Below the pieces are notes generated by a model. The model saw only the letters and a list, made by a program, of their open reading frames with translations. It ran no database searches and was not told where the DNA came from. The translations under genes and the position numbers were made by a program. Below are positions 24,832 to 27,026 of a DNA stretch of 64,000 nucleotides, one piece after another. The stretch spans positions 160,001-224,000 of the forward strand of contig JAHPZH010000005.1 in NCBI GenBank assembly GCA_019058315.1, in the 5' to 3' direction. Origin of the DNA: Candidatus Helarchaeota archaeon. Its GTDB lineage: Archaea; Asgardarchaeota; Lokiarchaeia; Helarchaeales; RDOG01. Each line of letters starts with the position of its first letter. Position 1 is the first letter of the stretch.

Positions 24832-25764
24832 TCACTTCTTTTTAACGACAATTACTATCACAATAGTAATACCGATTATAACAGCAACAGCAATTCCTAT
24901 GATAAGTCCTGTGTTTGCTCCACTTTCCATGGTCATCAAGGCTAATAGTACTAATGGAAGTAAATTAGTGCCACCAGCATTTTTTGTAAGGTTCATTTCC
25001 CAAACCAGAACCCAACCTCCACTGTATGTATACCATCGACTACAATTTACAATTCCTCTATTATTGATAACTAATTCTTTCATGTGGTCTCCATTAGTCA
25101 TTCCATCCCATACTCTCCAGATTCCTTCAACATTTGGAGATGCAGGATTGCTTTGTGAAACTCCAGATCCGCCACCGCCATGATGTAACATTATTCCCCA
25201 CGTCGTATTTACAATTGTATGATTAGTATGCGTCCAGTTCATAGGAACACAAAACGGAAGAAAATATGTTAGTAAATATCCAGGTGTTATATTTACGTAG
25301 AAGTTATAAAGACCTTGACAATTTGAAATGCCACTCTGTTCCCATTGTCTAAATGAAGAATTATACGCACTTATGACCCAAGGAAGACTTACTCCCATAA
25401 ATTCACTAGTGAGTAAGCTCCAACCAGATGATTGATTATAATAATATACTAACGCCGTTATTAAATCTGCATACCAAAGCCAACCAGTCTCATCATATAA
25501 CAAAAAAGCCCAAGAGTTATATCCATAAGTATACTTAAAATACACTTTATCACAGCTATTCATAGGAATAGATCCAAATAAACTATTACCACCAACAGTA
25601 CAATTATATAGATAATTTCTGATTGTAGAAGAATTAAATCCATTACCCCCTTCTTGCCAAGGTGGTGGTGGTATTTGGGCGGATATTGATTGAATAGGAA
25701 GAAGGAATAGCATTGATGCAATCAAAGTAACTAACAGAGGTAGAAATAAATTATTTTTTTTCAT
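24832..25764 (-). CDS. Secreted, C-terminally membrane-anchored (likely glycosylated) surface protein
   Basis: Signal peptide MKKNNLFLPLLV...; many NxS/T sequons; C-terminal GGTNLL, hydrophobic stretch, TM and KKK. Confidence 0.8.
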   Translation of the reverse strand: MKKNNLFLPLLVTLIASMLFLLPIQSISAQIPPPPWQEGGNGFNSSTIRNYLYNCTVGGNSLFGSIPMNSCDKVYFKYTYGYNSWAFLLYDETGWLWYADLITALVYYYNQSSGWSLLTSEFMGVSLPWVISAYNSSFRQWEQSGISNCQGLYNFYVNITPGYLLTYFLPFCVPMNWTHTNHTIVNTTWGIMLHHGGGGSGVSQSNPASPNVEGIWRVWDGMTNGDHMKELVINNRGIVNCSRWYTYSGGWVLVWEMNLTKNAGGTNLLPLVLLALMTMESGANTGLIIGIAVAVIIGITIVIVIVVKKK

Positions 25765-25978
25765 AGTTTTCCCTACCTATAATATGAACTATTAAAATTC
25801 TATATAAAAAATTTTATATAAAAATTTATTCGAAAATCTAGTTTTTTTATGAAAACAAACTAATATCTATAAGAAATATTACATTCAAACTTACTGGAAA
25901 CAGATTTCCAATAATAGAATTAATACAAAATAAAAAATGAAATAAATTATTTTTTTTATCATTTTGTCCCAATATTAT

Positions 25979-26049
25979 ACTGGAATAAGGAGCGCATCCC
26001 TATCAATAATACATTAAATTTTTTTGTATTATTTCATTTTTCTTCCAGT
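25979..26049 (-). promoter_or_regulatory. Eukaryote-like SECIS element in the 3' UTR
   Basis: Minus strand: ACTGGAA GAAAA ATGA AATAATACA AAAAAATTTAA TGTATTATT GA TAGGGATGCGCTCCTTA TTCCAGT. This gives helix 1 (ACTGGAA/TTCCAGT), an AUGA/GA core, a perfect 9-bp helix 2 and an A-rich apical loop. Begins 1 nt after the TAG stop. Confidence 0.85.
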
Positions 26050-26050
26050 T

Positions 26051-26374
26051 CTATTTTAAATCACCGATTATTAGATAACCTCTTCCTTCATCTATTTTTC
26101 CATCAATTATTATTTTTTCTGCCATAAATAGAAAATATGCTGCATCTTCATCTACAAAAACTTGCAATCCATTTATAGTTCCTAATAATTCTAACTCATT
26201 CAATCTTGATGTATCCTCAAAATGGATCGATGTCCAGTGTGCTCTTTGAGTAGTACATCAAGAAAACCGCTCAAATTCTGTTATCACCAATATTTCATTA
26301 TTTTCTTTATTGTTTTTTAGTCGTTCAGTGATCACACGTTTGGCAAGGTCTGTCAACTCAATCTTTATAGTCAT
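26051..26374 (-). CDS. HesB/IscA-like selenoprotein (107 aa; TGA at 26258-26260 read as Sec39)
   Basis: MTIKIELTDLAKRVITERLKNNKENNEILVITEFERFS-U-CTTQRAHWTSIHFEDTSRLNELELLGTINGLQVFVDEDAAYFLFMAEKIIIDGKIDEGRGYLIIGDLK*. The frame stays open for 68 codons after the TGA and a SECIS follows. Confidence 0.85.
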
Positions 26375-26456
26375 TCTAATTCAACTTTATATTCTTATCT
26401 TGTTAATACTCATTACTATTTAATAAAAACGATTTTGTAAAAATAAAAATTAGATT

Positions 26457-26744
26457 TTAATCTTTTATACCAGGTCCTTTAATAACACCTTCATGGTCAT
26501 CATAAGGGATTTGACGAATTAACGCCCAATTTTTTACTGCTCTGGAGTAAATTCGAACATCCTTAATATCGTCATATGCTCCGAAATAAACTACAACACT
26601 ACAATCTTTATCTTTGGTCTTGAATTTTCCAGCAATTTTTTTGATGAAAATTGGTTCATCTTCTATATCCATTTGAATTTTAGAATTCTTAGATAATAAT
26701 TCAATTGCAAGATCAATACCTGTCTTAATATCATCTTCTTTCAT
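26457..26744 (-). CDS. Small hypothetical protein, tandem paralog of 26760-27026
   Basis: Shared MK..DI..GI, NSK...D and F..K..GKF pattern; GGAG upstream. Confidence 0.75.
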   Translation of the reverse strand: MKEDDIKTGIDLAIELLSKNSKIQMDIEDEPIFIKKIAGKFKTKDKDCSVVVYFGAYDDIKDVRIYSRAVKNWALIRQIPYDDHEGVIKGPGIKD

Positions 26745-26759
26745 ACAACATTCGCTCCA

Positions 26760-27026
26760 TTAACTAACTTCTCCCAAATCTTCTACTTTGATATTTCTTT
26801 TTTGCGCTCCTTTTATAACCATTTTTTCTAATAAAGCTATTTTCTCGGGATCTTCCGAAATTAAAACATACCCCAGAATACTGCGCACTTCATTATTGGA
26901 ATCCAAGAATTTTCCGTCCAATTTTCTCATAAAGCATATATCTTCCTTATAATCTATTTTTGTTTTGGAATTTTTTAGCGTTTCTACGAATATTTCTATT
27001 CCTTTTTCGATATCTTGTTTTTTCAT
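26760..27026 (-). CDS. Small hypothetical protein, tandem paralog of 26457-26744
   Basis: Same N-terminal pattern; 15-nt gap to its partner. Confidence 0.75.
   Translation of the reverse strand: MKKQDIEKGIEIFVETLKNSKTKIDYKEDICFMRKLDGKFLDSNNEVRSILGYVLISEDPEKIALLEKMVIKGAQKRNIKVEDLGEVS

Follow-up and report, generated by a model that had tools for sequence, protein, structure and literature searches.

What is the folded RNA that lies directly after the stop codon of a small archaeal gene with one in-frame UGA, and which of its features are its own? The window analyzed here is the whole stretch of 64,000 nucleotides from a Candidatus Helarchaeota assembly (5.8 Mb, ~30% G+C, 94% complete, 6.6% contaminated). 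A preliminary description of the locus read the RNA as a eukaryote-type SECIS, assigned it to the UGA-containing gene, and regarded it as a possible structural variant because of a short helix 2 and an additional side hairpin. We conclude, with a probability of roughly 0.88, that the element is the 3′-UTR SECIS of the 107-codon gene just upstream and that it belongs to the Lokiarchaeial type I (lokiSECIS).

Structure of the element and comparison with known SECIS

On the minus strand, between window positions 25979 and 26049, the RNA has three helices (Table 1). The coordinates given earlier match base for base, and every feature that the preliminary description listed is found both in the sequence and in the MFE and centroid structures computed with RNAfold; the GA of the core sits within the UGAU (26005-26002) that had been placed opposite AUGA. 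The 5′ arm of helix 1 is followed by GAAAA and then by AUGA, and a single A lies between the side hairpin and the 3′ arm of helix 1. The gene ends with a UAG stop codon at 26053-26051, and helix 1 begins 1 nt downstream of it. The three-way junction is both the MFE and the centroid structure (-17.3 kcal/mol, z = -3.29); none of 200 dinucleotide shuffles folds as well as the element (RNAfold).

Table 1. Features of the SECIS, of the gene that precedes it, and of the downstream tract, in window coordinates.
Feature	Position	Strand	Remark
Selenoprotein gene	26051-26374	minus	Open frame of 107 codons closed by a UAG stop; contains a single UGA (translated with TGA=U)
UGA codon 39, read as selenocysteine	26260-26258	minus	~220 nt upstream of the SECIS core
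Helix 1, 5′ arm ACUGGAA	26049-26043	minus	Pairs with UUCCAGU; presumed C helix of a k-turn
AUGA of the SECIS core	26037-26034	minus	5′ half of the tandem G.A quartet
Helix 2, 5′ arm AAUAAUACA	26033-26025	minus	Perfect 9 bp with UGUAUUAUU
Apical loop AAAAAAUUUAA	26024-26014	minus	11 nt, A-rich at the 5′ end
Helix 2, 3′ arm UGUAUUAUU	26013-26005	minus	Partner of AAUAAUACA
GA of the SECIS core	26004-26003	minus	3′ half of the quartet, abuts helix 2; UA spacer next
Side hairpin (third or ‘T’ helix) AGGGA-UGCGC-UCCUU	26001-25987	minus	5 bp, UGCGC loop
Helix 1, 3′ arm UUCCAGU	25985-25979	minus	1 nt beyond the side hairpin
Oligo-U tract U6 A U4	25937-25927	minus	First downstream, ~45 nt past the SECIS; candidate archaeal terminator, putative function

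As defined in the main text of Mariotti 2016 (PMC4989117), a lokiSECIS has AUGA before a 9-bp stem, an 11-nt loop in which the first five bases are mostly A, and GA right after the stem, and it is located near the stop codon. The window element shares this arrangement, that is, AUGA, a 9-bp stem, an 11-nt loop that opens with a run of five or more A, and GA, and it is likewise located a few nucleotides past the stop of a UGA-containing gene. The short helix 2 is therefore not the peculiarity for which it had been taken; lokiSECIS as a group are defined by just such a stem of 9 bp and a loop of 11 nt (PMC4989117). The element also falls within the type I, eSECIS-like category described for Asgard archaea in the main text of Huang 2024 (PMC11227280), in which a stem of 7-15 bp with at most two mismatches carries a loop of 8-20 nt and is followed by GA or AA. 

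The window element differs in two respects from the published description of lokiSECIS. The last base of its apical loop is A, not the G that the main text of Mariotti 2016 (PMC4989117) calls ‘ultraconserved’ at this position and that the main text of Huang 2024 (PMC11227280) does not require; in the five orthologous elements (vide infra) the loop begins AAAAA and its last base is A or U, and the vhuD and vhuU SECIS of the same genome are likewise without the G. Furthermore, the published lokiSECIS account, in its main text, covers the core, the upper stem, and the loop together with a featureless ‘internal loop and lower stem’, whereas the window element has a third helix.

The assignment as eukaryote-type and not methanogen-type stands on the motifs, that is, AUGA...GA and an A-rich loop are present and GAA_A is absent. 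The Rfam model for eukaryotic SECIS (RF00031, SECIS_1) gave no match in 25700-26500 at E-values up to 10, so the ‘eukaryote-type’ label rests on motif resemblance; according to the main text of Mariotti 2016 (PMC4989117), lokiSECIS are likewise unmatched by the Rfam eukaryotic SECIS model. No SECIS family was found when the window was scanned with Rfam at the gathering score, and the scans of the locus and the window returned only chance snoRNA-like matches. Relative to eukaryotic SECIS, helix 2 has only 9 bp (the shorter stem is noted in the main text of PMC4989117), and the 3′ side of the internal loop is taken up by the third helix, a departure from the two-helix layout.

The euryarchaeal SECIS (Methanococcales, Methanopyrus) resemble the window element in their 3′-UTR position in an archaeon; however, 25979-26049 contains no GAA_A bulge between G+C-rich 10-bp and 3-bp stems, and we rejected this class on the absence of its motif. 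The euryarchaeal VhuD SECIS is described in the main text of PMC4989117 as having AUGA / GAC motifs and a short extra stem. Two further candidates were rejected: a box C/D sRNA k-turn, since C/D boxes and an Rfam match are lacking, and an intrinsic terminator, since the hairpins do not run directly into a U-tract.

The host genome encodes tRNA-Sec, SepSecS directly adjoining tRNA-Sec, and selD with an in-frame TGA; by its relatives and its SECIS type, it belongs to the Asgard class Lokiarchaeia. The hosts of lokiSECIS and the host of the window element are alike in having PSTK/SepSecS-type Sec machinery and no reported SBP2; this eukaryotic SECIS-binding protein is given as not found in Asgard archaea in the text of the published accounts.

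The third helix in orthologs, in the host genome, and across the class

The element is present at the same place in all five orthologous loci, which past helix 1 can no longer be aligned with one another. In the six-sequence alignment of the orthologs, 96% of the cells are paired. Pair 4 of helix 1 changes on both sides from G-C to A-U in one ortholog (L132), pair 7 of helix 2 is A-U, G-C, or G-U, and pair 2 of helix 3 alternates between G.U and A-U; this ortholog set is small and closely related, with two double changes only. The assignment of the SECIS to the UGA-containing gene, as first proposed, is supported by this retention with compensatory changes behind 5/5 UGA-containing orthologs. 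In two of the orthologs the gene's own stop codon is UGA, located 2 nt before helix 1.

Our scan of the host genome used a pattern for the core only (NUGA, 9 bp with at most one mismatch, an 11-nt loop whose first five positions include three or more A, then RA). It returned 52 matches, nine of which are located behind UGA-containing genes: the window gene, two other IscA-like genes, hdrA, two vhuD/mvhD genes, vhuU, and the genes for a small membrane protein and for a Cys-Sec-Sec protein. All nine SECIS have a hairpin 0-4 nt past GA, and in eight of them the hairpin has at least two G-C pairs; a hairpin with at least two G-C pairs occurs in none of the remaining 43 core-pattern matches and at 6% of random genome positions. 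The link of the three-helix element to UGA-containing genes is exclusive. The expectation that the same architecture recurs downstream of selD, hdrA, and vhuD holds for hdrA and vhuD/mvhD, with vhuU in addition. The selD 3′ UTR has no type I match with the covariance model R3 (vide infra), and its reportedly type II structure was seen neither by eye nor with RNAfold.

For a sample of the class, we searched 40 Lokiarchaeial genomes with a pattern that requires AUGA and GA and chose 40 SECIS by helix-2 pairing alone; their flanks were fetched afterwards. A hairpin is located 0-4 nt after GA in 39 of the 40, vs 0/40 at three control offsets in the same loci. Directly next to the hairpin, helix 1 closes the element with 5 bp or more and no interruption in 26/39, vs 10.5% when the 5′ flanks are shuffled. 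The side hairpin thus does not make the window element a variant, as had been supposed; it occurs in 39/40 SECIS of the class and 9/9 of the genome itself. Because the hairpin is common to the class, the relevance for the transition from archaeal to eukaryotic SECIS that the preliminary description saw in this element attaches to the class as a whole.

For the 3′ halves of paralogous SECIS, MAFFT gave no usable alignment, so we used one guided by a covariance model. In the resulting alignment of 51 elements, 91% of the cells are paired (vs 47% in shuffles and 38-47% with slid partners), and double-sided changes are found at all 21 pairs of the three helices; helix 3 is 88.8% paired. These values lean towards structure, since the alignment was fitted by a model that contains the three helices; the alignment-free hairpin count counters this bias for helix 3 only. 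AUGA is present in 48/51 and GA in 51/51 of the aligned elements, counts that are partly built in because 40 of the 51 were retrieved with the pattern requiring both. At the junction, GA and 1-2 nt precede the hairpin, which adjoins helix 1 with a 0-nt spacer in 41/51 elements. The hairpin loop has 5 nt in 34/51, mostly UGCAA, CGCAA, or UGCGA, and the first pair of helix 2, beside the G.A pairs, is non-canonical in 29/51.

Model R3 is the covariance model built from 51 other Asgard SECIS. It scores the window element at 64.3 bits (E 3e-16), the sole match in the 64-kb window. It finds 3-11 elements per genome in 15/15 genomes of one family, and it also has matches in two of five genomes of a G+C-rich genus from another Asgard class, with an AUGA...AA core and a UGCGA loop. 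Among the best 150 candidates scored, the models R1 and R2 missed known sibling SECIS and most of their extra matches were false; descriptor scans were substituted for them. A search with PF02662 across the phylum gave mostly Cys forms, which makes this family unsuitable as a protein anchor for collecting SECIS.

The third arm is therefore a general, covarying part of the Lokiarchaeial type I SECIS, present in nearly all that were sampled. Might it nevertheless be foreign to selenocysteine insertion? The core hairpin (AUGA, helix 2, and GA) would then be the SECIS, and the side hairpin and helix 1 would be a scaffold, that is, a 3′-end stabilizer or a processing site with no Sec role. Eukaryotic SECIS function without a third helix, and the published models, as set out in their main texts, find Asgard selenoprotein genes with the core, the upper stem, and the apical loop alone; both points count for a scaffold. 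However, the arm covaries and its placement is exact, with 1-2 nt separating it from GA and, in 41/51 elements, 0 nt separating it from helix 1; its YGCRA pentaloop recurs across paralogous genes and in two classes; and it is absent from core-pattern look-alikes that are not located behind selenoprotein genes. Such tight coupling to the core is unexpected for an independent stabilizer, and we consider this alternative unlikely.

The window element could also be conceived as a distinct SECIS subtype of the HesB-like gene family, with the hairpins elsewhere being coincidental. The elements of this family do share small traits: the last loop base is A or U and not G, and a Watson-Crick A-U is kept at the first helix-2 pair, which is non-canonical in 29 of the 51 aligned elements. 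These differences are of single bases, not architectural, and the general model gives the window element 64.3 bits; moreover, coincidence is hard to reconcile with a hairpin in 39/40 blind-picked elements vs 0/40 control positions and in 9/9 of the genome itself. We regard a separate subtype as very improbable.

The third arm is apparently new to the literature. It is undescribed in the main texts of Mariotti 2016, Huang 2024, Sun 2021, and a 2026 review, the figures and supplements of which lie outside this scope and may depict the arm; the full-text literature that combines SECIS with three-way junction or k-junction, or Asgard with L7Ae, also contains no description of it.

The gene served and its protein family

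With UGA read as Sec, the window protein has a Sec-Cys dyad at codon 39 within the motif F-S-U-C-T-T, and U-C-S-T is kept in the orthologs. A word-indexed search of 5.8 billion proteins identified two full-length relatives with 87% and 70% identity, both on short metagenome contigs; they translate only with TGA=W, which means that they share the codon position of the TGA. When 1.84 billion representatives were searched exhaustively with HMMER, only five family members came to light. Four of these are fragments cut exactly at the TGA codon, either N-terminal (37-40 aa) or C-terminal (50 aa), and reading their contigs through the TGA yields full-length orthologs with 63-67% identity to the window protein. 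In total, all six family members have their TGA at one and the same codon, the five orthologs having 63-87% identity, and in the six loci the flanks of the TGA are equally conserved on both sides, without a frame shift.

No Cys-containing or stop-free homologue was found in the word search of 5.8 billion proteins or in the HMMER search of 1.84 billion representatives, and a search of metagenome and genome contigs with the protein alignment gave no relatives. Within genomes of the same order, a protein search gave two distant stop-free matches only (27-32% identity). DNA contigs from four runs contributed nothing but strain variants of the locus.

That the TGA is a true stop (in a split or decaying gene, or between two small ORFs) and the hairpin a terminator or an L7Ae-binding k-turn is scarcely credible: gene callers do cut the family at the TGA, leaving 37-40-aa and 50-aa database fragments, and the family has no confidently assigned fold, but the TGA is kept at one codon in six loci (63-87% identity), its two flanks are equally conserved and stay in frame, no homologue with Cys or free of the stop was found in the protein databases searched, the same RNA is located behind the established selenoprotein genes hdrA, vhuD/mvhD, and vhuU, the genome has the Sec machinery, no U-tract directly follows the hairpins, and Rfam reports no C/D or other k-turn RNA family above chance at the locus.

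To which family does the predicted selenoprotein belong? Pfam PF01521 (Fe-S_biosyn) matches four of the six family members with E-values of 0.03-0.08, at a score of 13.5 that is below the curated cut-off of 26.3. TIGR01911 (HesB-like selenoprotein) matches with E 0.03, aligned as far as the Sec, but scores 14.9 bits vs a cut-off of 66.35; we rejected membership in TIGR01911 because the score is far below the curated cut-off. The UxGP motif is absent from the window protein, which has SUCTT. With BLASTP, the protein matches another small selenoprotein of the same genome over its full length (E 0.02). The AF2 model is of low confidence (pLDDT 57, pTM 0.55), and for this model the best Foldseek matches, IscA 1x0g and SufA 2d2a, are non-significant (E 0.3-0.5, TM 0.35-0.41).

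The window protein and the HesB-like, IscA, and SufA proteins are alike in length (~100 aa) and in having Sec near residue 35-40, the place of the first cluster-ligand Cys in IscA; they are unlike in that the window protein has U-C-[ST]-T in place of UxGP and has no C-terminal CxC. On these matches, the protein is probably IscA/HesB-like, weakly so. The window gene is outside the seven Asgard selenoprotein families listed in the main text of the 2024 survey (PMC11227280) and outside those in the text of the 2026 review. With it, the Asgard selenoproteome gains a small family that carries a Sec-Cys dyad and that homology-based surveys miss. With respect to the main texts of these publications, the third arm and this small Sec-Cys selenoprotein family are new, and the lokiSECIS kind is known.

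k-Junction topology and proposed mechanism

A k-junction is a k-turn whose non-bulged strand carries a third helix, as in the TPP riboswitches (Wang, Daldrop, Huang and Lilley 2014, PMC4005666). In the window element, the 5′ strand, which passes from helix 1 through the loop and G-A into helix 2, corresponds to the bulged strand. Helix 1 then takes the place of the C helix and helix 2 that of the NC helix; the side hairpin is located in the non-bulged strand, between GA and helix 1. At the level of secondary structure, the element thus has the topology of a k-junction. The resemblance extends to the G.A / A.G pairs that open the NC helix 3′ of the loop and to the third helix that abuts the C helix (0-nt spacer in 41/51), as expected for coaxial stacking. 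The class of the window element differs from the k-junction in that it serves recoding and not ligand binding, in the absence of any sequence relationship, and in that the comparison here is one of secondary structure alone. The 5′ internal loop (3-5 nt plus AU) exceeds the canonical 3-nt loop of a k-turn, so the correspondence to a k-junction fold is topological; the 0-nt spacer and the non-canonical first pair of helix 2 fit such a fold without proving it. In its main text, Huang 2024 cites the k-junction paper for GA_AA pairing only (PMC11227280).

We consider the following mechanism the most likely. The AUGA...GA core would form tandem sheared G.A pairs and produce a k-turn-like kink at the base of helix 2, and the 9-bp helix 2 would present the A-rich 11-nt loop. 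The RNA would then recruit the archaeal Sec-specific elongation factor with Sec-tRNA(Sec), either directly or via a SECIS-binding protein, so that the UGA at codon 39, ~220 nt upstream, would be read as selenocysteine and not as stop. The third helix most likely stacks on helix 1, and in this position it may fix the kink and/or offer a pentaloop of the YGCRA type as a recognition surface.

How the 3′-UTR SECIS of archaea is linked to the ribosome is an unsolved problem; archaeal SelB is reported not to bind SECIS in the main text of PMC4989117, and no archaeal SECIS-binding protein is known. The Asgard SECIS has been proposed as the link to the eukaryotic element. We suggest, tentatively and as a possibility that we would not favor over its opposite, that type I SECIS, in Lokiarchaeia and in at least one further Asgard class, are k-junctions instead of simple kinked hairpins, that in them the helix with the YGCRA pentaloop stacks on helix 1 and is an obligatory determinant for recognition by a SECIS-binding factor, aSelB, or the ribosome, and that the arm was lost in eukaryotes when SBP2 took over. 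If the SECIS is a k-junction with an obligatory arm, the published model of an ‘intermediate’ SECIS would be redrawn, and the arm would be a concrete bait for the archaeal SECIS-binding partner. With the third helix, hidden Asgard selenoprotein genes can also be sought with a sharper model, and together with its pentaloop the helix offers pull-down or structural studies a defined RNA surface.

The mechanism requires a transcript that reaches position 25979. Between the stop codon and the last base of the SECIS, runs of U do not exceed 3 nt, and the first oligo-U tract is located beyond the element (Table 1). Two of the orthologs (L010 and L011) have U7-U8 runs at similar distances downstream.

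The third arm in other genomes

SECIS elements of the same three-helix architecture as the one in the window are found at L159 and L160, two loci from genomes of another class of the phylum; therefore, the third arm is older than the class Lokiarchaeia. In these elements the core is AUGA...AA, the closing helix is CUGCUGC/GCGGCAG, and the third helix, GCCCC/GGGG(A/U), is capped by a UGCGA pentaloop.

In the SECIS of an hdrA-like gene (L124), a single unpaired C separates the AUGA from an 8-bp stem, AAUAAUGA/UCAUUAUU; both a third helix (GGGA-AUUGCG-UCCC) and a closing helix of 7 bp are present. The selD 3' UTR of the source genome (L001) has the same layout, that is, a 'third arm' next to helix 1: it contains an AUGA, and the hairpin GUGUCU-GCA-AGACAU abuts the closing helix GCGGC/GCCGC. 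This 3' UTR, whose upper part is reportedly type II, has no type I (lokiSECIS) core geometry and no match to R3, the covariance model built from 51 Asgard SECIS.

Features discussed in this section, with positions and strands
Feature	Position	Strand	Remarks
selD 3' UTR (L001)	G000:C11:696500-696900	-	source genome (G000)
SECIS of hdrA-like gene	L124 = G004:C26:48247-48411	-	genome G004, same order
Three-helix SECIS	L159:1501-1571 and L160:1501-1571	+	genomes G037 and G047, from a different class in the phylum; 51-54% G+C
SECIS after hdrA-mvhD pair	G000:C5:666174-666208	+	UUGA in place of AUGA
vhuU SECIS	G000:C5:1207636-1207670	+	GUGA in place of AUGA
SECIS of small selenoprotein gene	G000:C3:786881-786915	+	canonical three-way; 137 codons (stop to stop), motif SIG-U-GG
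SECIS of small selenoprotein gene	G000:C5:241411-241445	+	canonical three-way; 142 codons (stop to stop), motif SAI-U-GTGG
ORF, 95 aa	window 26457-26744	-	immediately 5' of selenoprotein gene, paired with 88-aa ORF
ORF, 88 aa	window 26760-27026	-	paralogue of 95-aa ORF, same upstream pair
Gene for 310-aa protein	window 24832-25764	-	downstream of SECIS

The core, helix 2 and the stop codon

Two SECIS of the source genome, those after hdrA-mvhD and vhuU, have variant cores and both retain the three-way junction; the UGA within the vhuU core doubles as the stop codon of the gene. The stop codon is also UGA in two orthologs of the window's selenoprotein gene (L132:542-544 and L133:1528-1530), where it lies 2 nt ahead of helix 1, so each of these mRNAs would have one UGA read as Sec and another as stop, the latter about 15 nt or less from its own SECIS.

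The helix-2 pair adjoining the G.A pairs (columns 27/55 of A7, the alignment of the 51 SECIS) is non-canonical in 29 of the 51, so the '9-bp stem' frequently consists of 8 bp and a single non-Watson-Crick pair; this matches the expectation for the 3b.3n position if the core is a k-turn. The SECIS of the HesB-like family have a Watson-Crick A-U at this position, except in two orthologs, where it is A.C.

Related proteins and neighboring genes

Two further small selenoproteins of the source genome, with the motifs SIG-U-GG and SAI-U-GTGG, show weak similarity to one another (E 2e-4), as does the SIG-U-GG protein to the window protein (E 0.02).

The paralogous upstream ORFs share 31% identity, and neither has a match in Pfam. 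Conservation extends to at least some of the neighborhood, since the ORF immediately 5' of the L011 ortholog shares 71% identity with the 95-aa ORF. The 310-aa protein, also with no match in Pfam, has a signal-like N-terminal segment, many N-x-S/T sites and a hydrophobic C-terminal anchor. A 300-aa protein of similar make-up, as judged by eye, is encoded at L135:159-1061, upstream of the ortholog in that locus.
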